Below are positions 4,866 through 42,460 of a DNA stretch of 64,000 nucleotides, in pieces. The translations under genes were made by a program, and so were the position numbers. The stretch lies in the NCBI RefSeq assembly GCF_058153355.1, contig NZ_CM177019.1; one strand, given 5' to 3'. Position 1 is the stretch's first letter. Each line of letters starts with the position of its first letter. A model generated the notes under the pieces. That model had not been told where the DNA came from. It made no database searches and worked only from the letters and a program-made list of their open reading frames with translations.

Positions 4866-6506
4866 TCACGCTGTTGCGAAACTAACAGACTCACCAGCTC
4901 CGCGTGATTCTGCCAACACAGAATGTTTGTTCAGGCGGAAAACGTCTACCGCCTCAGTTAATCGTGCAGCCTGTTCTTCAAGGGATAGCGCCGCCGCAGA
5001 AGCCTCTTCTACCAGAGAAGCATTCTGTTGCGTCACCTTATCCATTTCGGAAATCGCCTGGCTCACCTGCGTTATGCCTGTACTTTGTTCATCCGAGGCG
5101 GCGGCAATCTCCTGCATGATATGTGTGACACTCGCGACGGCATCAACAATCGTGCTCATGGTTTTCCCTGCCGTTGCCACTTCAACCGACCCCAGGTCAA
5201 TTAACCTGACTGATTCACTGATCAAGCCTTCAATCTCTTTCGCCGCTTGGGCGCTGCGACTTGCGAGTGTCCGTACTTCGCTGGCGACAACGGCAAATCC
5301 ACGTCCTTGCTCACCCGCTCGCGCGGCTTCAACGGCAGCATTCAGCGCCAGAATATTTGTCTGGAAAGCAATGCTGTTGATGACGGCAGTGATCTCGGAA
5401 ATTTTCTTTGAACTCGTGGAGATTGCTCCCATCGTTCTAACTACACCGGAAACCGTCTCCCCGCCATCGCTGGCTTTAATGGAGGCCTCCTGCGCCAGTT
5501 TGCTGGCATGATGCGCGTTATCTGCATTCTGTTTCACCGTCGCAGTGAGTTGCTCCATGCTGGCGGCAGTTTGTTCAATTGCCGCCGCTTGTTCTTCGGT
5601 GCGAGATGAAAGGTCCGCATTGCCAGCGGAAATTTCGCTGGTGCCACGATAAATCTCTTCCGCGCCCTGTCGAACAGTCCCGACTGTCATCCCCAGTGAA
5701 TGCTGCATTTGCTGTAAATGACGACTTAAGCGACCGATTTCATTACGACCCGCCGGTTCATCATTCATCGTCAGATCGCCACTGGCAATTTTTTCAATCC
5801 GTTGTGCGGCATGTTGCAGTGGACGAATGACGATCCGACGTAGCACCATAAATGTTATCAGCGTCATGACCACGGCAAGCACAAACGCGCCAATCATAAA
5901 CATCACACCCAGGCGGGTACGCTGATGGGCCTGTTCCGCCAGTTGGTTGGCTCTGGTGCTACGTATCTTAACGGCTTTGCTCAAAATATCGGTATAAGCA
6001 TTATCCAGCGGTCGGATCTGCTCACTTTCATGATTGATAATCGCCTCAAACATGCCATTTTTGGCATATTTCAGCATGGGTTGGATACCCGTGATATAAG
6101 CCTGGAAACGTTGATTTAATTCAGCCTCGAGAGCTTCATCAGCAGGTGTTTTCACCGGCCGACTCCGGTAAGCCCGATAACCTTGCTGCGACTGTTTAAT
6201 CTCCGATTCGGCTTGCGCAATATTTCGCTTCATTGCTTCCATTTCCGCAATACGACTCGCGGCCCCGGCCTGAATCATATTGATCCGGGCCGAACGCAAA
6301 AAATCTGAGCTGTTCGCTAACCCGGTCCGAACCTCAATCTCTGCAGTCACATCACGCTGATCGCGATCGGCCTTCCAGAGGAAATAGCCAGCCAGGGCTG
6401 AACTCAAGGCAAACAGAAGTAAGATACCGCCAAGAATGCAGGCAAATAACGGAACCAGCCTGATGTGATGCAAAAAACCTAATCGCTGTGAGGGAGTTGT
6501 ATTCAT
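4866..6506 (-). CDS. trg: methyl-accepting chemotaxis protein III (ribose/galactose sensor)
   Basis: 546-aa ORF with two TM segments, HAMP and MCP signalling domain; matches Trg. Confidence 0.95.
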
Positions 6507-6545
6507 TACCGTTGTCTCTCTTCCAGGTTTACTCCTGATAGAAAG

Positions 6546-6572
6546 TCATCGGCATTTGACGGTAATTACTTA
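6546..6572 (-). promoter_or_regulatory. putative sigma-28 (FliA) promoter of trg
   Basis: minus strand reads TAAGTAAT-N11-GCCGATGA (consensus TAAAGTTT-N11-GCCGATAA) about 40 nt upstream of the trg start. Confidence 0.4.
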
Positions 6573-6798
6573 CGACTAAAAACCTCTTTGCGTCACATTT
6601 TTACAACAATTATTGCAGAGAAGATTAATGCCATTGGATTGAAGAAAGTGAGGAATGGTTAAACTGGCTAACCCGAATGACGAAAAATTCTGGAAAACAG
6701 CACGCTATTTCGTGAAGTGATTATTTTCGTCCCTAAGGAAACCTCATAGGATGCTCACGGGTGCCTGAGACTTTCTGTTTTCAGGCTAACCGGGAATC

Positions 6799-6846
6799 AG
6801 AAAGACGAAGGCCCCGACCGATATTTCTATCAACCGAGGCCAACGA

Positions 6847-6858
<12 letters not shown>
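6799..6858 (-). ncRNA. sokB: SokB antisense RNA (antitoxin of hokB); ends approximate
   Basis: antisense to mokB start region; candidate promoter TTGCCG-N17-TAACAT on minus strand inside mokB 5' end; hairpin and U-rich tail; coordinates inferred. Confidence 0.35.
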
Positions 6859-7054
<196 letters not shown>

Positions 7055-7125
7055 GGGCAAGCGCGGGGATTTTCCCCGCGCATCTGACTAGCGGATTCAG
7101 TTTCTCATGGCACCCCTTTTACACT

Positions 7126-7299
7126 TCAGTTAGTGCATGTTTTTTTCGATGCACTAATAGAACCATCATTACAGACAAATTTGCCGCCTGCCGTACAGTG
7201 TGAGATCCCCCCTTTCGAACCAGAACAGGGTTTGCGCCCGGCATCGGCATAAAAGGAAACAAGCGCTCCCATAACCAAGATAAGTGCCAATTTTTTCAT
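7126..7299 (-). CDS. ydcA: small secreted protein YdcA
   Basis: 57-codon ORF MKKLALILVMGALVSFYADAGRKPCSG... with signal peptide, translated by hand; between cybB and hokB. Confidence 0.8.
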   Translation of the reverse strand: MKKLALILVMGALVSFYADAGRKPCSGSKGGISHCTAGGKFVCNDGSISASKKTCTN

Positions 7300-7543
7300 A
7301 TAACCTCCATGATTTATCGAATCTTATGTTCGATTTGAACGTTATACGCTGGTTTATTTTGATACCGTTGATGAGATCAAAGATCGGGTGAATTGATTAA
7401 AGATAAGCCAGATGGACATATGGACAAGGATTATGGTTTTATTTGTCATACAAATAAATATAATAGGCGCTTCCGATGTAGGCCCGTATTCTTCGCCTGT
7501 ACCACGGGTCGGTTTTAGTACAGGCGTTTTCTTTAAATATCCT

Positions 7544-8262: not shown

Positions 8263-9264
8263 ATGAGTAAAGTTGGTATTAACGGTTTTGGTCGTATCGG
8301 TCGACTGGTGTTGCGTCGATTACTTGAAGTCAAAAGTAACATAGACATTGTCGCTATTAATGATCTCACTTCCCCAAAAATTCTCGCCTACCTGCTGAAA
8401 CATGATTCAAACTACGGACCGTTCCCTTGGAGCGTTGATTTTACGGAAGATTCACTTATCGTTGATGGAAAAAGTATCGCGGTTTACGCCGAAAAAGAGG
8501 CTAAAAATATTCCATGGAAAGCGAAAGGCGCAGAAATCATTGTCGAATGTACTGGCTTTTATACCTCCGCCGAGAAATCGCAGGCGCACCTTGATGCTGG
8601 TGCGAAGAAGGTGTTGATTTCCGCCCCTGCCGGTGAAATGAAAACCATCGTTTATAACGTCAATGACGACACACTGGATAGCAACGACACCATTGTTTCC
8701 GTGGCGTCATGCACCACTAACTGTCTTGCACCGATGGCCAAAGCCTTGCACGACAGTTTCGGAATAGAAGTCGGCACGATGACGACCATTCATGCCTATA
8801 CTGGCACCCAGTCACTGGTGGATGGCCCGCGAGGTAAAGATCTACGCGCTTCACGTGCAGCGGCAGAAAATATCATTCCCCACACTACAGGCGCGGCAAA
8901 AGCCATTGGTCTGGTGATCCCAGAACTGAGCGGCAAACTGAAAGGTCATGCGCAACGCGTACCCGTGAAAACAGGTTCGGTGACTGAACTGGTGTCTATT
9001 CTTGGAAAAAAAGTGACTGCCGAAGAGGTGAACAACGCGCTTAAAAACGCGACAAACAATAACGAGTCATTTGGTTATACCGATGAAGAAATAGTCTCTT
9101 CTGATATCATTGGCAGCCATTTCGGGTCGGTGTTTGATGCCACGCAAACCGAAATTACCGCCGTGGGCGATTTACAGTTGGTGAAAACGGTCGCCTGGTA
9201 TGATAACGAATATGGCTTCGTCACGCAGCTTATTCGCACCCTCGAAAAATTCGCTAAACTCTGA
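8263..9264 (+). CDS. gapC: glyceraldehyde-3-phosphate dehydrogenase C, intact
   Basis: uninterrupted 333-aa ORF with NAD-binding [10 protein letters not shown] and catalytic SCTTNC motifs. Confidence 0.9.
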
Positions 9265-10940: not shown

Positions 10941-11741
10941 TCAACGTAGCGAGCGACTTTCCATCGCCTCGATAAGCACAGCATCGTGTTTCAGCCTTTG
11001 CCATGCCTGGGTGACTTCTGCAGGAAAATCAACGTGAACGATAAAATCTCGCCCGCGTGGACCGTAGCCATCGCTATCATCGCGTAAACGTGGCAGCTCG
11101 CCAGTGAGTAGTGAGAGATAACGCTCAACCGGCCATAATCCTTGCAACGGATTAACAAAGATTACACTGTCTGCGTTGTTTCCTAGCTGAGGAACGAATC
11201 CGGGATAACTTAACCAGCGAGGTGCATCTGGATTGTCCCCGGTCATACGGCGGAACGTCGCCATCGTGCGCCGCTGCATGGTGGGGTCCTGAACAACGAT
11301 AGCCGTATGAACTCTTTCTACGGCCTGATTCAATAGCGCGATGCTAAAGCGTGCGTTTTCACCGCAGTTTGTTGACTGGTCTTCAATCCAGATTTTTTCA
11401 TGCGGAATGTGCCAGAACTGATGAGCGATATCCGCCAGGATGGTAGCTTCTGCTCTGCCAGTGGTGCGGATAGTGTTGTAGTGCGGATGCTGTGCGATGG
11501 CGCTATACAAAAAAGTTGTCGAGTGACCGATACCACCACTAATCAGTAGAGGAATTTGCTGATCGCGGGCAATCTTACATGCCGCATCGATAGTCGGCAT
11601 AACCGCATTGCCTGCAAGGATCACGCAATCGGCCTGATATGGCTCCTCTCCGGAGAAATCATCCTGCGCCAGCCACTGTCCGATAACATTTATGGCATCT
11701 ATGGTTGCCGTCGAAAGCGTCGGAAACGGGGTAATGTTCAT
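10941..11741 (-). CDS. ydcF: DUF218-family protein YdcF
   Basis: 266-aa [27 protein letters not shown]...; matches YdcF. Confidence 0.9.
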
Positions 11742-12155
11742 GGTTCCTCCTTATAGTTCCCTTAAGAATACTGCGTGAGATAATAATGAGAAGCGGAGCC
11801 ATCTGAAAGGTAGTTGATGCTTTTTCTATCGCGCCATCGCGAACCAGACACTTGTTTAAGTCATACACTATTTGCGGAGAAACTGTTGATAAAACATCAA
11901 TAACATAATGTTCTATCATTTTTAAATGACAGATAATCTGGTGTGATATTTATATAATATTCATTCTTATATTTCTCAATCAAGGGGAACATTTGGTATC
12001 CAGTGTATCGTCCTCATCAACCAGATGTGTTATAAGCACTTTACCTCGTTAATTTTAATATTACGAGTTACAGGACAAAACATCACTCGAATTTAGTCCA
12101 GTAACTCGTAGTAGCCAGAGTATACGTACCCATTGATAAAATGTCTGGCAATAAA

Positions 12156-13013
12156 TTAACCAGCTATACTCGCACTCGTCGGCCCTGTTTCAATACTACC
12201 CACAATATCAATAATGTGCCCCCAGAACATATCATCATCGTTATAATATAATGAATAATCTCTATTATAATCCATAGTCAACTCAACAAGATTTATTCTG
12301 CTAACAAACATATCTTCTGTAATTTCTTCATCTTCTTCATCTTGAAGCCAGTCATTGGCCAATTCAGTTAATTGTTCTGCGGCATATTGCCTAAACTCCT
12401 GATCTTTTTGTTGCATATGACTACATAAAAATCGCAGATTTTCAAAAGCCTGTTGCCAGGTATATCTATCATTCTTATCTACTTCCATAGATACAGAAAT
12501 ATTCTGATCATTCCATTTCACTTCCCCGCTAAAACAGGAGTAGTCTTTATTAAGCACGAAAGTCCCCAATTGCTGATCTTCAACAACAACTGGTTTGCGA
12601 TATTCTTTCTGAATATTGAGCAGTTCCTCACACTGAACATGACTTTCAAGAACCTCAAGAACATAAAACCGATTATAAAACTCGGCTAACTTTCCTTCCG
12701 GCACGGTCCTGTCAATCAAATCTCGTACTCTCAGGCGATATATACCACCAGACTGCATATTAAACGGCCACGCACAGCCTTGAGTTTTCTCATTTTCTTC
12801 TGTTATCAACCAGTTGAGTCGTCCATCTCCAACGTGAATTTCTCCCGTCGTCAGACTCTTCCAGGCGAGTAAGTGTTCAACCGCTGTCCAGTAATTATCA
12901 CCGTTACTCTTACCCGCGCCACCGCCAGTATCACTAAGAAGAACGATAATTTCTTCTTCTGTATCTTTAAATGTATGACTAAATTTTTTGTATTCTTCAG
13001 AATTTAAGTCCAT
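12156..13013 (-). CDS. orphan hypothetical protein (285 aa, acidic, no recognisable motif) in AT-rich islet
   Basis: single long ORF in a visibly AT-rich insert between ydcF and hrpA; ATG preceded by a GGGG SD-like run; no TM, signal peptide, HTH or nucleotide-binding motif seen. Confidence 0.6.
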   Translation of the reverse strand: MDLNSEEYKKFSHTFKDTEEEIIVLLSDTGGGAGKSNGDNYWTAVEHLLAWKSLTTGEIHVGDGRLNWLITEENEKTQGCAWPFNMQSGGIYRLRVRDLIDRTVPEGKLAEFYNRFYVLEVLESHVQCEELLNIQKEYRKPVVVEDQQLGTFVLNKDYSCFSGEVKWNDQNISVSMEVDKNDRYTWQQAFENLRFLCSHMQQKDQEFRQYAAEQLTELANDWLQDEEDEEITEDMFVSRINLVELTMDYNRDYSLYYNDDDMFWGHIIDIVGSIETGPTSASIAG

Positions 13014-13163
13014 TTTTGCCCCGGTGAAAAATAAATTTGATCAATAACATTGAGTGCCGCAGTAATGAATGTGTTATCGATAATTCAAAAATGACTGCGT
13101 ACGCCACAAGCCTACTCCCTACGCGACGTAAGGAGTACCGCCCTTGCTATTTTTCAGAATTCA

Positions 13164-13195
13164 TAAAAAAACCCGGCGCTAAATGCTTACCGGGT
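13164..13195 (-). terminator. rho-independent terminator of hrpA
   Basis: ACCCGG...CCGGGT hairpin followed by a 7-nt T run on the minus strand, about 30 nt past the hrpA stop. Confidence 0.6.
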
Positions 13196-13222
13196 TTTAG
13201 ATTTATCAGGCAAATAGCAGTG

Positions 13223-16200
13223 TTAACCGCTAATCTGTTCCATCGCCTGCAGAATACGCTTATCTGAAATCGGATAGGGTGTACCGAGTTGTTGGGCAAA
13301 ATAGCTGACGCGCAACTCCTCTATCATCCAGCGTATCTCTTTCACGTCTTCATCCTCACGACGTGCAGGCGGCAGTTTGTTGATCCATTGCTGCCACGCC
13401 TGCTGGACGTTTTCAACTTTCAGCATCTGAGCACGGTCACGGTGCGGGTCAACCGCCAGTTTTTCCAGACGCTTTTCAATCGCCTGCAAATAACGCAGCG
13501 TGTCGCCCAGGCGTTTGAAGCCATTACCAGTGACAAAACCGCGATACACCAGCCCACTCATCTGCGCTTTAATGTCAGAAAGCCCCAGCGCCATGGTCAT
13601 ATCCACCCGCCCTTTCAGGCGTTTGTTGATATTGAACACCGCTGTGAGGATTTGCTCGACCTGCTTCGCAATATCCACCACCGTGTCGTTCAGTTCAGCG
13701 CGCACTTTTTCATGCAACGCAGCAAAGCCTTCTTCCGTCCAGACCGGGCCGCCCGCCTCATCAATCAATTTATCAACACCGCAGGAGATGCAGTCGTCAA
13801 TAAGATCCAGCACTTTACCGTACGGGTTAAAGTAGAGACCCAGCTTTGCTTTATTCGGCAGTTTCTCATGCAGATATTTAATTGGCGACGGAATGTTCAG
13901 CAACAGCAAGCGACGCAAACCACGCCACATAGCCTGCTGTTGTTCCTGCGGGTTATCAAAAAGCTTAATCGCTACGCTGTCACGCTCATCCACCAGCGCA
14001 GGCCAGGCCTTCACTTTGTAGTTGCCACGTTTCTGCTCGTAGTGATCCGGTAAATTACCGAAGCTCCAGATATGTAACCCGCTTTGCTCAATACCATCAT
14101 CGGCAACGGCGGAAAGCGTTTCCTGCACTTTGCCTTTCAGGGCATCTTTCAGATCCTGTAATGAGCGCCCTTCTTTTAGCTTCTTATTTTTGTCGTCCAC
14201 CACGCGGAAGGTGATTTTCAGGTGATCAGGCACCTGATCCCAGTGCCAGTCTTCGCGGTCAACGGTAACGCCGGTCATCCGCCGTAGCTCGCGCTCAAGG
14301 CTGTCGAGCAACGGCAGTTCCAACGGCGTGACGCGACCTAAAAACGCTTCGGCGTAGTTTGGCGCGGGCACAAAATTACGCCGTACCGGTTTCGGCAACG
14401 ATTTGATTAGAGCAATCACCAGTTCACGGCGCAGGCCTGGGATCTGCCACTCAAACCCGCTTTCCTCAACCTGGTTAAGTAACGGCAGCGGAATATGCAC
14501 GGTCACACCGTCAGCATCCGCCCCCGGCTCAAACTGATAGCTTAAACGCAGCTTGAGATTGCCCTGATGCCAGAAGTTCGGGTAATCCAGCTTGCTGATT
14601 TTTTCCGCCCCTTCTTTGATCAACATGCTCTTTTCAAAGTTGAGCAAATCAGGTGTTTCGCGGCTGACTTTTTTCCACCAACTATCAAAGTGTCGTGCGG
14701 AAATCACATCGTGGCTGATGCGCTGGTCGTAAAACTCAAACAACGTTTCGTCATCCACCAGAATATCGCGGCGACGTGATTTGTGTTCCAGTTCTTCCAC
14801 TTCTGCCCGTAGTTTCAGGTTTTCACGGAAGAATGCGTGACGCGTCTGCCAGTCACCTTCCACCAGCGCGTGGCGAATAAAAAGTTCACGACACAGCGCA
14901 GGATCAATCTGGCTGTAGTTGACCTTACGCGCAGCAACAATCGGCAACCCGTAAACGGTGACTTTTTCAGTTGCCATCACCGCGCCCTGCGCCCGTTCCC
15001 AGTGCGGTTCGCTGTAGGAGCGTTTAATCAAATGCTGGGCAACTGGCTCTACCCATTCCGGATCGATGCGTGCCGCAATGCGCCCCCACAGGCGGCTGGT
15101 TTCTACCAGTTCCGCCACCATTGCCCATTTCGGCGGCTTCTTGAATAAACCAGAACCGGGGAAGATGGAGAAACGCGCGTTACGTGCGCCGGTATATTCC
15201 TGTTTATCGGCATCTTTCATGCCGATATGCGAAAGCAAACCTGTCAGTAAGGCGATGTGAATTTCGCGATACTCCGCCGGTTCGCTGTTAACCGGAATGC
15301 CAAGTTCTTTCACCACCTGGCGCAACTGGGTGTAGATATCCTGCCATTCGCGCACGCGCAGATAGTTAAGGTAATCGGTACGGCACAGGCGACGGAAGGC
15401 GTTTGAAGAGAGCGCCTTTTGCTGCTCGCCGAGATAATTCCACAGATTTACAAACGCCAGGAAGTCGGATTCTTTATCGTGAAAGCGACGATGTTTTTCG
15501 TCCGATGCCTGCTGCTTGTCCATTGGCCGCTCACGCGGGTCCTGAATAGAGAGCGCGGAAGTGATAATCATCGCCTCACGCACGCAGCCATGTTTCTGCG
15601 CTTCCAACACCATTCGCGCCAGACGAGGATCGACTGGCAGTTGCGAGAGCTGGCGACCGAGCGGCGTCAGTTTATAGGCGCTGGCCTGTTCATCAGTGGT
15701 GATCGCGCCCAGCTCTTCGAGCAGACGCACGCCATCCTGGATATTGCGTTTATCCGGCGCTTCTACAAACGGGAACGCAGCGATATCGCCCAGCCCCAGC
15801 GCGGTCATCTGCAAAATAACCGAGGCCAGGTTGGTACGCAGAATCTCCGGATCGGTAAATTCCGGGCGCGAGAGGAAATCGTCTTCGGAATAAAGACGAA
15901 TGCAGATCCCTTCTGACACACGACCACAGCGGCCTTTACGCTGATTAGCTGAAGCCTGCGAAATGGGCTCAATCGGCAGACGCTGTACTTTGGTGCGATA
16001 GCTGTAGCGGCTAATACGCGCCGTACCTGGGTCGATAACGTATTTAATCCCCGGCACGGTCAGCGACGTTTCCGCGACGTTAGTCGCCAGCACAATGCGC
16101 CGTCCGCTGTGCGACTGGAAGACGCGGTTCTGCTCGCTGTTCGAAAGCCGTGCATAAAGCGGAAGAATTTCCGTATGGCGTAAGTTCAGCTTGTTCAGCG

Positions 16201-17125
16201 CATCGGCGGTATCGCGAATTTCTCGCTCGCCGCTCATAAAAATCAGAATGTCGCCAGGGCTTTCCTGGCTCAGTTCATCTACGGCATCGAAAATCGCCTG
16301 CAACTGGTCGCGCTCGGTGTCATCAGCTTCTTCAACAATCGGGCGATAGCGCACCTCCACCGGATAGGTACGACCGGAGACTTCGATAATCGGCGCATTA
16401 TTAAAGTGGCGCGAAAAGCGTTCCGGGTCGATAGTCGCGGAAGTGATAATGATTTTTAGGTCAGGACGCCGCGGCAGTAACTCTTTCAAATAACCGAGGA
16501 GAAAATCGATATTCAGGCTGCGTTCGTGCGCTTCGTCAATAATGATGGTGTCGTACTGCATCAGCAGGCGGTCTTGCTGGAGCTCCGCCAGCAGGATACC
16601 GTCGGTCATCAGCTTGACCATCGTGTTATCACTTACGTGATCGCTGAAACGCACTTTATACCCGATGCAACCGCCCGGCTCCGTTTTCAGCTCTTCCGCA
16701 ATACGGTTCGCCACCGTTCGTGCCGCCAGACGACGCGGCTGGGTATGGCCGATCAGCCCTTTAATCCCGCGGCCCAGTTCCATACAGATTTTCGGTAGCT
16801 GAGTCGTTTTCCCGGAACCCGTTTCCCCGGCGACGATCACCACCTGGTGATCACGGATTGCTTCGAGAATGTCCTGCTTTTTCTGACTAACCGGCAAATT
16901 GTCTGGATAAGTGATTTCCGGTCGTACTGCTTCACGCAGCAGGACTTTCCCTGCCGCCTGGTCAATCTCTTTCGCCATCTCCTGGAAAATGGCCTGTTGT
17001 GCATCAGGATTTTTAACCTTCTTCACGCCGTGCAGACGGCGGGAAAAACGCAGTCTGTCACGCAGCATCAGCGAATCCAACCGTTGCTGCAAGGCCGTAA
17101 AGGTCAATTTTTGTTGTTCTGTCAT
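13223..17125 (-). CDS. hrpA: ATP-dependent RNA helicase HrpA (DEAH-box)
   Basis: 1300-aa ORF with GETGSGKTTQ Walker A and DEAH motifs; matches HrpA. Confidence 0.95.
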   Translation of the reverse strand: MTEQQKLTFTALQQRLDSLMLRDRLRFSRRLHGVKKVKNPDAQQAIFQEMAKEIDQAAGKVLLREAVRPEITYPDNLPVSQKKQDILEAIRDHQVVIVAGETGSGKTTQLPKICMELGRGIKGLIGHTQPRRLAARTVANRIAEELKTEPGGCIGYKVRFSDHVSDNTMVKLMTDGILLAELQQDRLLMQYDTIIIDEAHERSLNIDFLLGYLKELLPRRPDLKIIITSATIDPERFSRHFNNAPIIEVSGRTYPVEVRYRPIVEEADDTERDQLQAIFDAVDELSQESPGDILIFMSGEREIRDTADALNKLNLRHTEILPLYARLSNSEQNRVFQSHSGRRIVLATNVAETSLTVPGIKYVIDPGTARISRYSYRTKVQRLPIEPISQASANQRKGRCGRVSEGICIRLYSEDDFLSRPEFTDPEILRTNLASVILQMTALGLGDIAAFPFVEAPDKRNIQDGVRLLEELGAITTDEQASAYKLTPLGRQLSQLPVDPRLARMVLEAQKHGCVREAMIITSALSIQDPRERPMDKQQASDEKHRRFHDKESDFLAFVNLWNYLGEQQKALSSNAFRRLCRTDYLNYLRVREWQDIYTQLRQVVKELGIPVNSEPAEYREIHIALLTGLLSHIGMKDADKQEYTGARNARFSIFPGSGLFKKPPKWAMVAELVETSRLWGRIAARIDPEWVEPVAQHLIKRSYSEPHWERAQGAVMATEKVTVYGLPIVAARKVNYSQIDPALCRELFIRHALVEGDWQTRHAFFRENLKLRAEVEELEHKSRRRDILVDDETLFEFYDQRISHDVISARHFDSWWKKVSRETPDLLNFEKSMLIKEGAEKISKLDYPNFWHQGNLKLRLSYQFEPGADADGVTVHIPLPLLNQVEESGFEWQIPGLRRELVIALIKSLPKPVRRNFVPAPNYAEAFLGRVTPLELPLLDSLERELRRMTGVTVDREDWHWDQVPDHLKITFRVVDDKNKKLKEGRSLQDLKDALKGKVQETLSAVADDGIEQSGLHIWSFGNLPDHYEQKRGNYKVKAWPALVDERDSVAIKLFDNPQEQQQAMWRGLRRLLLLNIPSPIKYLHEKLPNKAKLGLYFNPYGKVLDLIDDCISCGVDKLIDEAGGPVWTEEGFAALHEKVRAELNDTVVDIAKQVEQILTAVFNINKRLKGRVDMTMALGLSDIKAQMSGLVYRGFVTGNGFKRLGDTLRYLQAIEKRLEKLAVDPHRDRAQMLKVENVQQAWQQWINKLPPARREDEDVKEIRWMIEELRVSYFAQQLGTPYPISDKRILQAMEQISG

Positions 17126-17316: not shown

Positions 17317-17931
<615 letters not shown>

Positions 17932-25872: not shown

Positions 25873-28800
25873 TTAGAACGTTTTCTTGAAGTTCAGCATC
25901 ACGCCTTTATCGCTGATACCATCCTCTTTCCAGTGGTAAGCATCCAGATTCAGCGAACTTTCTTTGCTGCTGTACTTCACGCCGACGCTTGCCAGACTGT
26001 TGATGCCGCCGCCCTTTTGCCCATCATCGACATTAAAGTGCTGGCTGCCTGCGCCTGCCAGGCTTGCCGTGCGCTGGCTCTTCGTGTAGCTCAGGTTCGG
26101 GCCGCCTTCCAGCGTGGCGTTCGCGCTCCAGCCGTCTTTGCCTGCGTAGTCCAGCTTCAGCCCGACGATACTGTCCACCGCCGTTTCGCTGCCGCTGTTC
26201 ATGCTCAGGTTAAAGTCTCCGGCATTACGCTCCTGATAACCGCCTTCCAGCGTGTGACGCAGTTTCACACCCGCATATGGCGTGATTTTCAGCCCTTCGC
26301 GCGGTTCAAAGGTTTTCGCCCCTTCGCTGCGGAACTCCAGGTACTGCTGTTTCACGTTGGTATCCGCCGTTTTGCTAACGTCGCCGTAAGCCACCGAACG
26401 GCTGCTGTCCAGTTGGTGAATATCGTAACGCAGCGCGTTATTCCAGCTCATACCGTTGTCAAAGGACATCTGATGCTTCAGGCCAAAGAACTGGCTGTAG
26501 CCGCCTGTAACACCATTATCACCCGCTTTCTGCGCACCATCGCCGTCCAGACGGGCGATACCGTACTCCAGGCTCATGGTCTGGTTTTCGCTCAGGTCGA
26601 GGGTTTTGCGCAGCGCCAGCATGTCGTACTCGGTATTATTCCCCAGCTCTGCACGCGGATCGCCTTTCGCCACCACGTTAAATGCCAGACCGTTGCCCAT
26701 CTTCGGTGCTGCGTCCGCCAACATGCTGAAGCGGTTACTCAACACGCGGGCCTCACGAAATACCGTGGTAGCCTGGCTCCCGCTGACTTGTTTCAGCGCG
26801 CTGTTCAGCTCTGCAGTGGTGCCAACGTTCAGACTGGTATACAGCTCGTTGTTGGTGTAACCCGCATCCAGCGCTTTTGCCACGTCATTCACTGAGGCAT
26901 CCGTCGCCACATCGGTGTAGGCGTTTTTGCTCATGGTCACGTCAACGTTGCCGCTGGCGTCGGTACTGCCTGTCGCCTGCCAGACAACAGATGTCGAAGT
27001 GATCGCTTGCGCATCAGTCAGGTTGCTGCCTTGCACCACATCATCAAAGCTGACGGTTTTGTCCGCCGTTCCCGCCGCAAAATCGGTGTTGATCTCCACG
27101 CCGTTCATACTGGCGTTATTGAGCATCAGCTTACCGGCGCTACCGTCGGCGTTCGTCCCCACCACGTAACCATTGAGGTTGTTCATGCCATCGTTGCGGC
27201 TAACGGAAGAAGAATGGGTGCCGTCGTATGGCGTAATGGTGGGTTCTTCCGGCGCGGTAAAGTCGACATAGTGCACTTCCGTACCGTCTCCGCCTTCGCC
27301 ACTACCCTCCATCGCCGTGCCAGATTGTTTAATTAATCCGGAACCATTCACGCTGTCGTCAATATAAACAGTGCCGTTGTTAACAATATGACCATTGCTC
27401 CCGAGCTTGCTGAAAGCCCAGGAGTTATTGGCGTAGATATTAATCGTACCGTTGTTTTCAACCACACCATCCGCTTTCGCGTCCGATGCTAATTGCATTC
27501 CAACCATACCTGTATGCGAAGTGCCTTCGCTACCAATATTGATAGTGCCATTGTTGACCATTTTTGCGCTGCCGTGCGCATTCATGGCGATGGTATTATT
27601 TTTATCAATATTGATAGTGCCATCGTTAATTGCCCGGCTACCGGCGTTATTATTTGGCGTCGTAACCTGGCCGTTAATCACACCTGTCGTACCGTTATAC
27701 AACGTATGCCCATTACCGCTGGTAGCGATATCAGCATCACCATTCACTGTACCCCAGTTGTTGAAATGCCCAGCCCAAAGTCCGTTATCAAGAAGATCGA
27801 CAACACCACCGACCAGGTTATTAAAGGTCGCGTTTTTATCAACCGAACCACTGTGAACCGTTCCTGCGTTATTGAAAGTGGCTGCGGCAGAAAAATTCAC
27901 TTTATTGACCGTTCCATCCGCTTCGTTATTCATCACGGCAGAAGCTGAGGCCCCTTTCCAGGCTGTTACCGTCCCGGCGTTATAAAACGTACTGGCCCAT
28001 TGTTCAACAGTGTTCATGGTGCCGGAATTGTTGATAACAGAACCCGCAACGGTTGTACCTACCAACCCGGTCACCGTACCTTCGTTAGTGAACACGCCGC
28101 CATCCACAGAAACGGTTTTTGTCGTGCCCTTATTGGTGTATTCCCCACCGGTTGCGATATCAACCTCATTAATACTGCCCGTGGTTTCATTGACCAAACG
28201 GCCAAAGTCAGCCACGGTGACAGGCCCCCCGGTAACCGTACCCGCGTTGGTTACCAGGGTTTCGGCGGTTGCCGTGATATCAGTCGTACCGCCATATGAA
28301 GACAGGTTAAGCGTTTCCCCGTCAGCCGAAATAATGTCACCATTTCTCCAGCTTAATGAAACAAACCCGTCAGTCGGGTTATAGGCGTTATTGTCCTGGC
28401 ATTTCCCAAAAGTACAGATGGTTCCGTAATTAACAATAGTCCCGCTGCCATCGTTATAGAACGCCTGCCCGTTTTCGGCATTGATATTGATGATGCCAGT
28501 CTGATCATTAATCGCAGTGGCACCATTGTAAACAGCCATGCCGACCAATTTATTTGGCCCCAGCGTATCATCATCATTTTCATTTACTTCCAGATTTATA
28601 GTTCCCTGGTTAATAATAATGTTACCTGGCTTCATCGCGGCCATACCGGCACCGGAATTATAGAGTGTTATTTCACCACCCTGCTGGTTAATGGCGGTAG
28701 AATTAACGCTGGCACCAGAACTGTCTGTACCCACAGCCATCCCGACAGCATAATCTTTGGCGCTGTCATGAGCGATATTGGACGCCAGACTGGAAGTATC

Positions 28801-31371
28801 GTTTTCATCAACCCATAATGCGTCAATGAAAATCTTACCCATATTGTCAATGGTTGAATTATTGGAGGCCAGCATGCCAACACTCCCCCGGCCGTACATT
28901 TGGATCTCACCGGCAGTATTATTTGAAGCGGTGCCATTGTTGCCTGCCGTCATCCCCGTCAGACTAATGACTTGATTATTAAAAATTAAAGGGTCACTCA
29001 AACCTTGAGCGTTCAGACTATTGAAAATACGTCCCTGCGCGAGTACCTTACTGGTGATGGCACTGTTATTAACAACTCGACCACCATAGACGCTCAAATA
29101 CGCAGAACTAGCAGAGTCTGATGTATTCCCCTCTACGCCGTAGATAGAAATCGTTACGTTGTTATTATTTACAGCTAGCGACTCTTCACCAGTAGCCCTG
29201 GCAAAGCCAATATTACCCAGTTCTACATCACCATTATTTATCATCTGCGAACCGGAATTCACCAGTACAACCTGTGATGTGTCACTATTATAATGATCAA
29301 ATGTATTTATATCTTTTAGGATAAAAGTGGCGTTGCGGCCAAGTTCTAAATGGGCTCGGTTATTCAGTTGAATGATATCGCCTAATCCAAGCGGAAAAAC
29401 ACCACTGATTGTTGAATCCCCATTTAGATACAGAGTAGAGTGCCCATCGATTTTGATAACAGGCGTATCGCCATAACCATTACGTTTTAAAGCAGGTGTG
29501 GAGCCATCCTGTAGAGTATTTTCTTCGCCAGCTAAATGGATACCACCATTAATTTCGACGGTATTACCGTCACCCGACACAACCAGACCATTAATATTTT
29601 CCTGGCTGCCATCCATTTCATTATAGATACGAGAAGTGACTTCACTGTCAGCAACAACGGTAAGATTGCCATTTAATACGATATTATTGTCGTGTCCCTG
29701 CACCTGAATGCCAACAGAAGGGGTAAAAAAGTCATTTATTGAATGCTCTCCGGCCTGATTTTTATCCACCAGAATATTACCGGTAATTTCAACTTCATTG
29801 CCATCACCGGCTACATTTACCCCTGTCGCAACACTGCCGGTCACATTAAGCTCATTTGTCGCCAGCGTCATGGCGTTATTATTTCCAGAGACATCCAGAC
29901 CGGTTGAATAATCCCCTACATCCACACGGCCAGCCAGAGAAATCAGACCATCATCTCCGATGATGCGAATCCCGGTACTGAAATTATCAGCAATGATGTC
30001 CCCCACATTGATAAGGGTAGAATGATTACCCTCAATCAGAATCCCTGTCGCATTGGCCTCTGAACTACCATTACTGACGGAAATATCCCCCCTGTTAATG
30101 AACGTCGACGCATCACCACTGAGAGAAACACCCTGCGAATTTTCATCCACGACCGTTATATTTCCTTTGTTGCTGACGATCGCGCCATTACCCTCAACAT
30201 CAATACCCCGTGCAGCATTGCTAACGTATAAATCCCCTTCCTGTATAACCGTCGCATTATTACCAACGATTTTGCTGCCCGTTGAATTTTGCCCATCAAC
30301 CGTCATATGTCCTTTATTATCGGTCCTGACATCATTACCGCTAATAACGGCCCCTATTCCGCCGTTATTGACAGTGGAGTCGCCAGTGTTATTTAAGATT
30401 GTACGATCGCCATTGACGATAACCGCCGTGCCAGCATCGACCACCGTCTGACCGTTATTATTGATGGTTATATTATCGCCGGTCAGGATACCGACCACCG
30501 AACCTTCACCGACAGCCTCTGTTTTACCCTCGTTTGTCAGCGCAATGTTGTTACCATTAATCATCATCACCGTGCCGCCATTCAGGGCCGTGTTACCGCC
30601 CTGGTCAGTGATAATCGCATCATTAACGGTAATTATTCTGCCCGTTGTTCCATCAGACACGACACTGGCTAACTGTGTGACGTGGAGTTTACCTTCGTCA
30701 TCGTAGCGCCATTCCATATCACCTGTGGTACTCACACCACTAAACATGGCGGTATGAGTCTCTTCATGGTTTTCCCACTCAGTCACAATGGTTTTTCGGC
30801 CATCTTTTGCCGTCAGCGTGTAGCTACCATCTTCATTTTGGGTATAAGTGAACGTCGCCCCGCGAATCTTCAGGGTTTGCGCGTCCTCGTCCCATGTCAC
30901 ATTGTTATCAAAGACAACGGGTTCTGTTCTCGGGGGGTCAACATCATCACCGCTATTGTCGGGTGGAGTAACATTACCGCCGTTATCTGGCTTTACAGGT
31001 ATACCTGAATCTTCATCACTGGGAACGGGTAGCGGTAGAGGGCCATTATCATCTGGCGGTATGGGCTGGGGAAAAGAAGAGTGAGCAGAATGATCATTGT
31101 CATGAGACAATTCAATCACTGCGAGTGTTGCCAGTACCGCCGTGGCACCTAATGCCAGTAACGAGCTGAAACCATTATTTGTAACAACAGCACATTTTTC
31201 TGGCACTGTTTTCAACTTCGTTGACGGTCGGGCGTGCCCTTCTGACTGACATGTCATTTGAGAGCTTCTGCGCATACTGTCTGCACTCTCGCCTTCTGTT
31301 ATTTCCGCCCCCCAGCTTTGGCCACTTAACGCTATAGCGATACACGCTGATAATAACGTTTTCTTTTGCAT
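25873..31371 (-). CDS. ydbA: autotransporter adhesin YdbA, intact (signal peptide, long repetitive passenger, C-terminal beta-barrel)
   Basis: single 1832-aa ORF; N-terminal signal peptide; Gly/Asn/Thr-rich repeats; C-terminus ends in aromatic residue (...MLNFKKTF) typical of autotransporter barrels. Confidence 0.85.
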   Translation of the reverse strand: MQKKTLLSACIAIALSGQSWGAEITEGESADSMRRSSQMTCQSEGHARPSTKLKTVPEKCAVVTNNGFSSLLALGATAVLATLAVIELSHDNDHSAHSSFPQPIPPDDNGPLPLPVPSDEDSGIPVKPDNGGNVTPPDNSGDDVDPPRTEPVVFDNNVTWDEDAQTLKIRGATFTYTQNEDGSYTLTAKDGRKTIVTEWENHEETHTAMFSGVSTTGDMEWRYDDEGKLHVTQLASVVSDGTTGRIITVNDAIITDQGGNTALNGGTVMMINGNNIALTNEGKTEAVGEGSVVGILTGDNITINNNGQTVVDAGTAVIVNGDRTILNNTGDSTVNNGGIGAVISGNDVRTDNKGHMTVDGQNSTGSKIVGNNATVIQEGDLYVSNAARGIDVEGNGAIVSNKGNITVVDENSQGVSLSGDASTFINRGDISVSNGSSEANATGILIEGNHSTLINVGDIIADNFSTGIRIIGDDGLISLAGRVDVGDYSTGLDVSGNNNAMTLATNELNVTGSVATGVNVAGDGNEVEITGNILVDKNQAGEHSINDFFTPSVGIQVQGHDNNIVLNGNLTVVADSEVTSRIYNEMDGSQENINGLVVSGDGNTVEINGGIHLAGEENTLQDGSTPALKRNGYGDTPVIKIDGHSTLYLNGDSTISGVFPLGLGDIIQLNNRAHLELGRNATFILKDINTFDHYNSDTSQVVLVNSGSQMINNGDVELGNIGFARATGEESLAVNNNNVTISIYGVEGNTSDSASSAYLSVYGGRVVNNSAITSKVLAQGRIFNSLNAQGLSDPLIFNNQVISLTGMTAGNNGTASNNTAGEIQMYGRGSVGMLASNNSTIDNMGKIFIDALWVDENDTSSLASNIAHDSAKDYAVGMAVGTDSSGASVNSTAINQQGGEITLYNSGAGMAAMKPGNIIINQGTINLEVNENDDDTLGPNKLVGMAVYNGATAINDQTGIININAENGQAFYNDGSGTIVNYGTICTFGKCQDNNAYNPTDGFVSLSWRNGDIISADGETLNLSSYGGTTDITATAETLVTNAGTVTGGPVTVADFGRLVNETTGSINEVDIATGGEYTNKGTTKTVSVDGGVFTNEGTVTGLVGTTVAGSVINNSGTMNTVEQWASTFYNAGTVTAWKGASASAVMNNEADGTVNKVNFSAAATFNNAGTVHSGSVDKNATFNNLVGGVVDLLDNGLWAGHFNNWGTVNGDADIATSGNGHTLYNGTTGVINGQVTTPNNNAGSRAINDGTINIDKNNTIAMNAHGSAKMVNNGTINIGSEGTSHTGMVGMQLASDAKADGVVENNGTINIYANNSWAFSKLGSNGHIVNNGTVYIDDSVNGSGLIKQSGTAMEGSGEGGDGTEVHYVDFTAPEEPTITPYDGTHSSSVSRNDGMNNLNGYVVGTNADGSAGKLMLNNASMNGVEINTDFAAGTADKTVSFDDVVQGSNLTDAQAITSTSVVWQATGSTDASGNVDVTMSKNAYTDVATDASVNDVAKALDAGYTNNELYTSLNVGTTAELNSALKQVSGSQATTVFREARVLSNRFSMLADAAPKMGNGLAFNVVAKGDPRAELGNNTEYDMLALRKTLDLSENQTMSLEYGIARLDGDGAQKAGDNGVTGGYSQFFGLKHQMSFDNGMSWNNALRYDIHQLDSSRSVAYGDVSKTADTNVKQQYLEFRSEGAKTFEPREGLKITPYAGVKLRHTLEGGYQERNAGDFNLSMNSGSETAVDSIVGLKLDYAGKDGWSANATLEGGPNLSYTKSQRTASLAGAGSQHFNVDDGQKGGGINSLASVGVKYSSKESSLNLDAYHWKEDGISDKGVMLNFKKTF

Positions 31372-32017
31372 GAGAAATCCTTTTCAATGAATGACATTTC
31401 AAATAATAAAATATGAGTAATAGATAAGAAATAGCCACAGGCTGTGTCATGATTTAATGCCTGCTCTTGAAATTTTATTTAGCAATCCCAGAACATTCAA
31501 CTTAATTAGTATTTCGAAACCTCAATGTAGACACATAAAAAACAAATTATTCGATTACTTAGGCTATTTGTTGCATTAATACACATCCTCTAACAATAAT
31601 CAGACAAAAAGCAATGTCAGCGTCAAATTGGGTAGCTGATTCATATTACTGACCACTCCGGAAATTCATTCATCGTGAAAATATTAACATTTCAACCATG
31701 TTCCATTTAATCAACCCACTGAAAATCTGGAGGTTATCTACTGCGGTTTGTTGTTGACTGCCCCTGACAGGTTTACCAGGCGTTGACAGAAGATGAGGCT
31801 TGCAAGATGCTAAAAACAATGTGGTGTTACAAGCAATCCCATAAACCTCGTAACTTCACTTAAATGAGCGATGCCGTCCATATTTGGGTTGACTATAAAA
31901 ACCCTTAATATTGAGGTTGATGATGATATTCATGATGGCATTGGAAAAATAGGACACCCATAAAATATCTATACAGCCTTTAAATTAAATCATTGAAATA
32001 TCGCTGTTGCATAGTGC

Positions 32018-32344
32018 TTATTTTTGCAACCATTTCCCGTTAATTCCCTGCACATATTCCCCCGGTTTGGCCCGAGCTACAAGCTTTTGTCCGGCAAGCT
32101 TCGCGATATCATCTACCGATACATTATTTTGCTTTGCCAGTTGTTGATAACTCACTTTACGTGCGGCATTAATCTCGGTTACTAATTTCTCTGTTTCAGC
32201 ATCCGTTTTCAACGCAACCAAATAACCGTTAAATGTTTCACCTACCCGCCCCTGAATTCTGGCCTCGTCCAGTGTTAATGCCACTACATTGCTGCTTACC
32301 AGTCCAACAAGAAACGCACAAAGAAGTAATGTTTTCTTCATCAT
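32018..32344 (-). CDS. ydbL: YdbL (DUF1318 periplasmic protein)
   Basis: ORF to 32422; 108-aa product from MMKKTLLLCAFLVGL (signal peptide); last gene of ydbH-ynbE-ydbL. Confidence 0.85.
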   Translation of the reverse strand: MMKKTLLLCAFLVGLVSSNVVALTLDEARIQGRVGETFNGYLVALKTDAETEKLVTEINAARKVSYQQLAKQNNVSVDDIAKLAGQKLVARAKPGEYVQGINGKWLQK

Positions 32345-32348
32345 CCCC

Positions 32349-32534
32349 TCAGAAAAGATCGCTACGGGTTTTGAGTAAATCCTCGACATCTTTGTCTGCC
32401 TTAATGATGATCTCATGCTCAATTTTAACGTTCATATTGATAGTGATCGGTTCCTTAGGTGCAGCGACTTCAATGCGAGGCGTACAGCCAACCAGCATAA
32501 AAGATGACGTCAACGCAGCCAGTAAAATTTTCAT
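32349..32534 (-). CDS. ynbE: lipoprotein YnbE
   Basis: 61-aa ORF MKILLAALTSSFMLVGC... with lipobox; start overlaps ydbH stop by 4 nt. Confidence 0.85.
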   Translation of the reverse strand: MKILLAALTSSFMLVGCTPRIEVAAPKEPITINMNVKIEHEIIIKADKDVEDLLKTRSDLF

Positions 32535-40961: not shown

Positions 40962-40990
40962 ATGCTCTGGATAAGGATTATCCAATTCTA

Positions 40991-41099
40991 AAAAAAAGCC
41001 CGAACGACTGTTCGGGCTTGTCTTCTTATATGTTGGAAAATCAGTGGCAATGCAATGGCCCAACAGAAAATAAAATCTGTGACAATAAAGGCATATAAC
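40991..41099 (-). ncRNA. micC: MicC sRNA (Hfq-dependent repressor of ompC/ompD)
   Basis: minus strand reads GTTATATGCCTTTATTGTCACAGATTTTATTTTCTGTTGGGCCATTGCATTGCC...GCCCGAACAGTCGTTCGGGCTTTTTTTT, recognised as MicC; terminator shared with ydbK. Confidence 0.85.
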
Positions 41100-41326
41100 C
41101 CGCGCAGAATAACGTATAGCAAATTAAAAGTATAATTTTTATTTTGTATGTATTATCTTCGATACATTCACCAGACTTATTATCATTTCAGAGGAATTAT
41201 TTGATTAAGGTTTTACTTAAGGCGTAACAAATGATATTTATCGGCTAACTGAACTTCTCCTTTAGGATGTTTTCATTCCCCGAAATGGGGATAAAAGGCA
41301 AATAAAATAACTAAAGGATTTATTCA

Positions 41327-42460
41327 ATGAAAAGCAAAGTACTGGCACTTTTAATTCCTGCCCTGCTCGCCGCAGGTGCTGCACATGCAGCCGAAGTTTA
41401 TAATAAAGACGGCAACAAATTAGATCTGTATGGCAAAGTTGATGGCCTGCATTATTTTTCTGATAATTCAGCGAAAGATGGCGACCAGAGCTATGCGCGT
41501 CTGGGTTTTAAAGGCGAAACCCAAATTAACGATCAACTTACTGGCTACGGTCAATGGGAATACAATATTCAGGCAAACAACACTGAATCTTCAAAAAACC
41601 AGTCATGGACCCGTCTGGCATTTGCCGGACTGAAATTTGCAGATTACGGTTCTTTCGATTACGGACGTAATTATGGCGTAATGTACGACATCGAAGGCTG
41701 GACCGATATGCTGCCTGAATTTGGCGGTGACTCTTATACCAATGCAGACAACTTTATGACTGGTCGTGCCAATGGCGTCGCGACTTATCGTAACACTGAT
41801 TTCTTCGGTCTGGTAAATGGTCTGAACTTCGCGGTGCAGTATCAAGGTAACAACGAAGGAGCCAGTAATGGTCAGGAAGGCACCAACAACGGACGTGATG
41901 TTCGCCATGAAAACGGTGACGGCTGGGGTCTTTCCACAACATATGATTTAGGCATGGGCTTTAGCGCTGGTGCGGCATACACCTCTTCTGACCGCACCAA
42001 TGACCAGGTTAACCATACTGCGGCTGGTGGTGATAAAGCAGACGCGTGGACTGCTGGGCTAAAATACGATGCTAACAATATTTACCTGGCAACCATGTAT
42101 TCAGAAACGCGTAATATGACCCCGTTTGGCGACAGCGATTATGCTGTTGCAAACAAAACCCAGAACTTTGAAGTCACTGCACAGTACCAGTTTGATTTTG
42201 GTCTGCGTCCGGCAGTCTCTTTCCTGATGTCTAAAGGCCGTGACCTGCACGCTACCGGTGGTGCAGACAACCCGGCAGGTGTTGATGATAAAGATCTTGT
42301 AAAATACGCCGATGTTGGCGCGACTTACTATTTCAATAAAAATATGTCCACTTATGTTGACTATAAAATCAACCTGTTGGATGAAGATGACAGTTTCTAT
42401 GCTGCTAACGGCATCTCTACCGATGATATTGTCGCTTTAGGTCTGGTTTATCAGTTCTAA
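41327..42460 (+). CDS. ompN: outer membrane porin N
   Basis: 377-aa ORF with signal peptide and porin C-terminus (...VALGLVYQF); matches OmpN. Confidence 0.95.

Follow-up and report, generated by a model that had tools for sequence, protein, structure and literature searches.

A probable CRP-assisted σ28 promoter upstream of trg in Escherichia coli and its footprint across enterobacterial genera

In a 64,000-nucleotide stretch of DNA (the window), a motif resembling the recognition sequence of σ28 (FliA) RNA polymerase lies on the minus strand shortly upstream of trg. A sequence-only reading of the window had taken this motif for the promoter of trg and had regarded it as what is expected of a class 3 chemoreceptor gene. 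The locus thus raises the question of whether the motif is indeed the trg promoter and, if so, whether it is a plain class 3 promoter or one that takes a second input, and of how far the answer holds in other genera.

The trg locus and its promoter elements

The DNA of the window is Escherichia coli. The 546-aa open reading frame next to the motif (Table 1) matches methyl-accepting chemotaxis protein families, its product is 96% identical to K-12 Trg over its length, and RefSeq E. coli genomes annotate it as trg. Of 5,426 complete E. coli genomes, 5,195 contain the 601-bp region around the trg promoter, the best of them at 99.7% identity. When only the 60-bp promoter core was used as a megablast query, 470 of the complete E. 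coli genomes were recovered, but this low figure is artificial: with a required word of 28 nt, the census misses K-12-like alleles, whose substitutions are too closely spaced.

The genes of this part of the window stand in the order ydcI - trg - sokB/hokB/mokB - ydcA - rydC - cybB - gapC - aldA, the same series as in K-12 but running the other way. The hokB/mokB/sokB type I toxin-antitoxin locus (6759..7054) sits immediately upstream of the trg promoter; within it, sokB lies on the same strand as trg, upstream of it, and ends in a terminator-like hairpin (6841..6810, minus strand). The small RNA RydC (7470..7533, plus strand; Rfam RF00505, 90.5 bits) is found between ydcA and cybB, as in K-12.

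Table 1. Features of the trg locus in the window. Promoter coordinates (negative numbers) are relative to the putative transcription start.
Feature	Position in window	Strand	Description
trg coding sequence	4866..6506	-	546 aa, ATG at 6506; methyl-accepting chemotaxis protein, ribose and galactose
Putative transcription start (+1)	6540 (T) or 6539 (A)	-	6-7 nt downstream of the -10 octamer
σ28 -10 octamer GCCGATGA	6553..6546	-	-13..-6; 7/8 to GCCGATAA
Spacer	6564..6554	-	11 nt, the consensus spacing
σ28 -35 octamer TAAGTAAT	6572..6565	-	-32..-25; 4/8 to TAAAGTTT
T-tract TTTTT	6582..6578	-	-42..-38; downstream edge of the CRP site
Putative CRP site, 22-mer AAATGTGACGCAAAGAGGTTTT	6600..6579	-	-60..-39; centred at -49.5
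sok	6759..6910		Rfam match
mokB open reading frame	6847..7014	+
hokB	6905..7054	+

Read on the minus strand, the promoter region runs ...GTCG TAAGTAAT TACCGTCAAAT GCCGATGA CTTTCTATCAGGAG...GGTA ATG, with the A of the trg ATG 40 nt from the last base of the -10 octamer. The sequence-only reading had placed the motif exactly (6546..6572, minus strand, N11 spacing), and its distance of about 40 nt to the trg start and its 7/8 match for the -10 octamer both agree with our count; its 5/8 for the -35 octamer was one too many, the matching bases of TAAGTAAT being T, A, A and the final T. The CGA core is present in the -10 octamer, in which the sole mismatch is a non-consensus G at position 7, and the -35 octamer, weak but recognizable, has both T-32 and A-30. 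At the K-12 aer promoter, the CGA core of the -10 element (-11..-9) is essential, and mutating -32T, -30A or -28 in the -35 element severely cuts activity (Hollands, Lee, Lloyd and Busby, 2010; PMC2859248). The sequence upstream of trg has the sequence features expected of a σ28 promoter, namely a -10 element with the CGA core, a -35 element with T-32 and A-30, and an 11-nt spacer.

A further element, the putative CRP site, had gone unnoticed in the sequence-only reading. The 22-mer begins 28 bp upstream of the -35 octamer, as expected for a site centred at -49.5. Its left half-site, TGTGA (6597..6593), is perfect, but the right half-site is poor (0 of 5 bases matching), and with 13 of 22 positions agreeing with the CRP consensus the site is weak by sequence alone; the window holds 42 22-mers that match the consensus equally well. 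When K-12 aer and the window trg are aligned on their σ28 octamers and the interval -75..-20 is searched, the best match to the CRP consensus starts at -60 in both (17/22 in aer, 13/22 in trg), so that the elements of the two promoters start at the same coordinates: -60 for the CRP 22-mer, -32 for the -35 octamer and -13 for the -10 octamer. They are also alike in having non-consensus -35 and -10 elements and in serving a chemoreceptor-type gene. Beyond its better CRP site, aer differs from trg in a -35 element, TAAAGATA, that is nearer to the consensus and a -10 element, GCCGACAT, that is poorer, and the two sequences are otherwise unrelated. Between CRP and σ28 domain 4, the C-terminal domain of the RNA polymerase α subunit (αCTD) may touch the DNA at the T-tract on the downstream margin of the CRP site; at aer, Hollands et al. 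placed αCTD downstream of CRP (PMC2859248).

The aer start has been mapped by primer extension to a position 6 bp downstream of the -10 octamer (PMC2859248), and it is from this mapped start that we infer the trg start at 6540/6539, which would give trg a 5′UTR of ∼34 nt (6507..6540). We found no mapped trg start in the accessible literature, including by full-text search, and no entry at the predicted start coordinates in the Cappable-seq supplements; a Salmonella FliA preprint has trg in a strain genotype only, without promoter data. In the start-site table of Kim (2012), trg is represented only by a 4-read start 586 nt upstream, with nothing at the σ28 promoter, possibly because the strain used was poorly motile.

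Evidence from K-12 and a second input from CRP

The K-12 trg promoter lies in the orthologous locus (hokB/sokB - trg - ydcI) and is nearly unchanged in the window. All 38 bases of the CRP 22-mer, the -35 octamer and the -10 octamer are identical, and the two promoters also agree in the 11-nt spacer, in the 6-bp gap between the CRP site and the -35 octamer and in the distance to the ATG. Four single-base substitutions separate the window from K-12 between the CRP site and the ATG (95 bp), all at unconstrained positions: two in the linker that joins the CRP site to the -35 octamer and one each in the spacer and the 5′UTR. The 28-mer reported from K-12 by chromatin immunoprecipitation sequencing (ChIP-seq) differs from that of the window at one base, spacer position 6555.

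Published data on K-12 bear directly on the role of σ28. In MG1655, FliA ChIP-seq gave a peak at 1490461 with a fold-above-threshold score of 23, assigned to trg, with TAAGTAATTACCGTCAAGTGCCGATGAC listed as the FliA motif (Fitzgerald, 2014; PMC4183435); after coordinate conversion, the peak centre (NC_000913.2) coincides with the orthologue of the putative start in Table 1. In the same study, trg RNA stood at 108 in the motile parent and at 4 in the ΔfliA strain, a significant, 27-fold drop (PMC4183435). Microarrays had earlier placed trg in the σF regulon, with expression 2.0-fold down without σF and 2.2-fold up on its induction (Zhao et al., 2007; PMC1935009).

Does σ28 act on this promoter unaided? 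The canonical class 3 promoters (tar, tsr, fliC, motA, flgM), which follow the pattern TAAAGTTT-N11-GCCGATAA, use the same sigma factor as trg and have the same arrangement of octamers, with the 11-nt spacer and the CGA core. They score 15-27 bits with the all-sites weight matrix, mostly with a near-consensus -35 element, whereas trg scores ∼15 bits with a -35 element of 4/8, and they bind no CRP in an activating position, whereas trg depends on CRP in K-12. One could nevertheless hold that trg has a plain class 3 σ28 promoter without an activator and that the AAATGTGA element upstream is there by accident or has some other role. The canonical layout of the octamers and their spacing speaks for this, as does the poverty of the CRP 22-mer described above, and CRP is known to control the whole flagellar cascade indirectly, via flhDC (PMC2859248). 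We nonetheless consider it unlikely. In gel shifts, the K-12 trg fragment, in which the 22-mer is identical, binds CRP to much the same extent as the aer fragment, and a trg100::lacZ fusion is σ28 dependent and is activated by CRP even when FliA is supplied independently of CRP (PMC2859248). The same work found the spacing of CRP site, -35 and -10 elements at trg to be identical to that at aer, where CRP is optimal at -49.5 and where 5-bp shifts in either direction, or placement at -41.5 or -61.5, abolish σ28-dependent activation; trg and aer are the only two σ28 promoters in K-12 that are directly activated by CRP (PMC2859248). Genomic SELEX with the σ28 holoenzyme alone likewise returned tsr but neither trg nor aer (Shimada, 2017; PMC5493296), which fits activator-dependent promoters, although absence from such a list is weak evidence.

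We are therefore confident that the segment 6546..6600 (minus strand) is the trg promoter, read by σ28 and assisted by CRP, with its function carried over from K-12, and we infer that this strain behaves like K-12 at this promoter. On this reading, σ28 RNA polymerase would recognize a good -10 element, GCCGATGA, with its CGA core, together with a weak -35 element, TAAGTAAT, and would begin transcription at about 6540/6539, ∼34 nt before the ATG. Because the -35 element is weak, full activity would require cAMP-CRP to occupy the 22-mer (6600..6579), whose centre is at -49.5. Expression of trg would then be confined to cells in which the flagellar cascade has freed FliA (late, class 3) and glucose is scarce, a double gate that would suit a receptor for ribose and galactose. 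Of the class 3 label given by the sequence-only reading, the dependence on FliA stands, but a plain class 3 promoter does not, given the direct activation by CRP in K-12. That trg is transcribed from this promoter by σ28 with CRP as activator was already known in K-12 (2010, 2014), and the elements are unchanged here; an annotation of the promoter should accordingly name two inputs, FliA and CRP, rather than a generic class 3 promoter.

Conservation across enterobacterial orthologues

In the accessible published work, CRP has been tested at trg only in K-12, and conservation across species has been scored only for the FliA motif. We scanned species-representative genomes once with the Trg-specific N-terminal 280 residues and obtained 80 loci from more than 20 enterobacterial genera, including Escherichia, Citrobacter, Enterobacter, Lelliottia, Leclercia, Kluyvera, Kosakonia, Trabulsiella, Phytobacter, Pluralibacter and Mangrovibacter. 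At each locus, the 300 nt upstream of the start codon were scored at fixed spacing with a σ28 matrix from which trg had been left out. A σ28 site is present upstream of trg in 79 of the 80 loci. Across these loci, the window and K-12, the best forward-strand score has a mean of 15.5 bits and a minimum of 11.7, compared with a mean of 4.3 bits and a maximum of 9.9 for the best reverse-strand score, which served as the control.

The site also keeps its place. In 77 of the 80 loci its distance to the ATG is 34-53 nt: the matrix match ends 39 nt short of the start codon in Escherichia; most genera have 49-53 nt, and Kluyvera and Dryocola 34-36 nt. The three loci outside this range are L081 (76 nt), L029 (244 nt) and L037, the sole locus without a site, which has an assembly gap (NN) 5 nt before its ATG. 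In L029 (Enterobacter mori), the promoter is kept, and an insertion of ∼190 nt separates it from the trg start codon; this 5′UTR insertion looks like a repetitive intergenic element. A second GTCGAT is found in the trg 5′UTR of many genera. Together with the ChIP-seq site at the K-12 orthologue, the loss of trg RNA in ΔfliA and the σ28-dependent fusion, this conservation bears out the proposal that the motif is a σ28 promoter of trg.

To resolve the individual elements, an ungapped profile was built from the 78 distinct sequences, anchored on the matrix match; the orthologous sequences are phylogenetically related, and counts of conservation among them are not independent observations. Information content is highest in the TAA at -32..-30 (1.97 bits per position), the -10 octamer (1.84 bits per position) and the T-tract at -41..-38 (1.75 bits per position), intermediate in the left half-site of the CRP site with its flank (0.99 bits per position) and in the right half-site (0.87 bits), and lowest in the spacer and upstream of -62 (0.40 bits per position in each). 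A spacer saturated with changes between elements that hold fixed positions is the signature that constraint would be expected to leave. The -10 element is GCCGATGA in 63 of the 78 distinct sequences, so conservation extends to the non-consensus G at position 7. The -35 element is always TAA plus non-consensus bases and in none of the 78 is it the consensus, which, with the SELEX result, argues further against a promoter that needs no activator.

A TGTGA is found at -57 or -58 in 70 of the 78 distinct sequences (at -57 in Escherichia, at -58 in most other genera), while the bases next to it drift, and this too is hard to reconcile with an incidental element. It lies ∼8 bp further upstream in Kluyvera and is absent in two distant genera. 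The -49.5 geometry for CRP thus appears not to be strictly conserved across genera, since the TGTGA is 1 bp farther from the -35 element in most other genera and ∼8 bp farther in Kluyvera. Outside Escherichia (L006..L080), a block GCGCTTTT occupies approximately -46..-38, just upstream of the -35 element. This block is more conserved than the CRP right half-site that a 6-bp spacer would predict, and it would fit either a TGTGA-N8-xCxCx arrangement or a contact with αCTD.

The profile raises a different account of the upstream region, in which the conserved TGTGA ... GCGCTTTT block is mainly an UP-element-like target of αCTD or the site of another regulator. Its attraction is that the most conserved part of the block is the T-tract and not the CRP right half-site, and that the position of the left half-site differs by 1 bp from Escherichia to the other genera and by ∼8 bp in Kluyvera. 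We think this account quite improbable, in that both the binding of CRP and CRP-dependent activation have been demonstrated directly for the K-12 fragment; moreover, at aer the αCTD contact downstream of CRP belongs to the CRP mechanism itself (PMC2859248), so that a role of the T-tract in docking αCTD is compatible with CRP-assisted σ28 transcription and does not exclude it.

Whether the arrangement as a whole has been selected is a finer question. The elements concerned are the weak -35, the -10 with its conserved G, the TGTGA at -57/-58 and the T-tract at -41..-38. It is, in our judgement, an evenly balanced proposition that this composite design has been selected across more than 20 genera of Enterobacteriaceae, with co-dependence on CRP being ancestral, the σ28 elements kept sub-optimal and the T-tract docking αCTD. 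If this is true, the σ28 elements would be held below their optimum so that CRP stays necessary. The cross-genus footprint is the only increment of the present analysis over what was known from K-12; it suggests that the composite design is conserved across Enterobacteriaceae and lends modest support to CRP-assisted σ28 transcription of trg being an old, conserved arrangement.

Motif scores against chance and other features of the window

How much of this could have been read from the motif itself? A search of the window for TAAAGTTT-N11-GCCGATAA with up to 3 mismatches does not recover the trg site, which has 5, and returns two other places, no more than expected by chance. A 28-column weight matrix built from the 51 other FliA ChIP-seq sites (PMC4183435, Table 2), with trg left out, gives the trg site 15.2 bits and rank 3 of 127,946 positions, and a matrix of the 24 strongly bound sites only gives 16.4 bits and rank 2 of 127,946. 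Dinucleotide-preserving shuffles contain 0.43 (51-site matrix) and 0.27 (strong-site matrix) equally good matches per 64-kb window. By arithmetic from the shuffles, this amounts to ∼3e-6 per position and, by the same arithmetic, to a chance of roughly 3e-4 for a correctly oriented match in the 100 nt that precede a chemoreceptor gene. The motif score alone is suggestive and not significant at the scale of the 64-kb window; the strong support for the trg promoter comes from orthology and conservation, not from the motif score.

Three other motifs in the window score as high or higher. At 41237..41264 (minus strand), TAAAGGAG-N11-GCCGATAA, with a perfect σ28 -10 element, scores 18.1 bits, more than the trg site. 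It lies in the intergenic region between ompN (41327..42460, plus strand) and micC (40982..41102, minus strand) and is directed at micC, ∼130 nt upstream of the micC 5′ end; it is identical in K-12 and yet is absent among the 52 FliA ChIP-seq sites. Two further motifs equal the trg site in score, one antisense inside azoR (17812..17839, minus strand; identical in K-12) and one sense inside ompN (42289..42316, plus strand; 3 substitutions in K-12), and neither is reported as bound by FliA in the K-12 ChIP-seq data. A σ28 motif score alone is thus a poor predictor, motifs that outscore the trg site being unbound by FliA in K-12.

These scores, the unbound motifs and the distant 4-read start of Kim (2012) are what can be said for the view that the trg motif is a chance occurrence and that trg is transcribed from a σ70 promoter, by read-through from sokB or from the weak start 586 nt upstream, a view that we regard as scarcely credible in light of FliA occupancy exactly at the site in K-12, the 27-fold lower trg RNA in ΔfliA (PMC4183435) and a position and orientation conserved in 79 of 80 loci with an assembly gap as the lone exception. 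A search of 6400..7200 on both strands for σ70-like promoters (TTGACA-N16-18-TATAAT-like) gave none, with 1.1 expected in shuffles, and read-through from sokB probably does not account for most trg RNA because the terminator-like hairpin at 6841..6810 closes sokB; with the loss of trg RNA in ΔfliA, both were rejected as its main source, in favor of the CRP-assisted σ28 promoter.

Other features were noticed elsewhere in the window, some of them differences from K-12. A single 1832-aa open reading frame at 25873..31371 (minus strand) corresponds to the ydbA autotransporter gene, which appears intact, whereas K-12 ydbA is split in three fragments by IS2 and IS30. The feaR-feaB-tynA-paaZ-paaA..paaY cluster, which occupies ∼19 kb between ydbL and ydbA in K-12, appears to be absent here (∼31400..32500), as the genes on the ydbL side adjoin the autotransporter gene. 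gapC (8263..9264, plus strand), a pseudogene in K-12, is an intact 333-aa open reading frame in the window, and its counterpart in the 99.7%-identical genome is annotated as a type I glyceraldehyde-3-phosphate dehydrogenase. Finally, ∼1.5 kb (11742..13222) separates ydcF (10941..11741) from hrpA (13223..17125) and contains a 285-aa open reading frame at 12156..13013; the near-identical genome has several hypothetical genes in this interval, with coordinates that are ∼190 nt off those of the window there, and beyond 11 kb its gene positions drift by ∼480 nt from the window.
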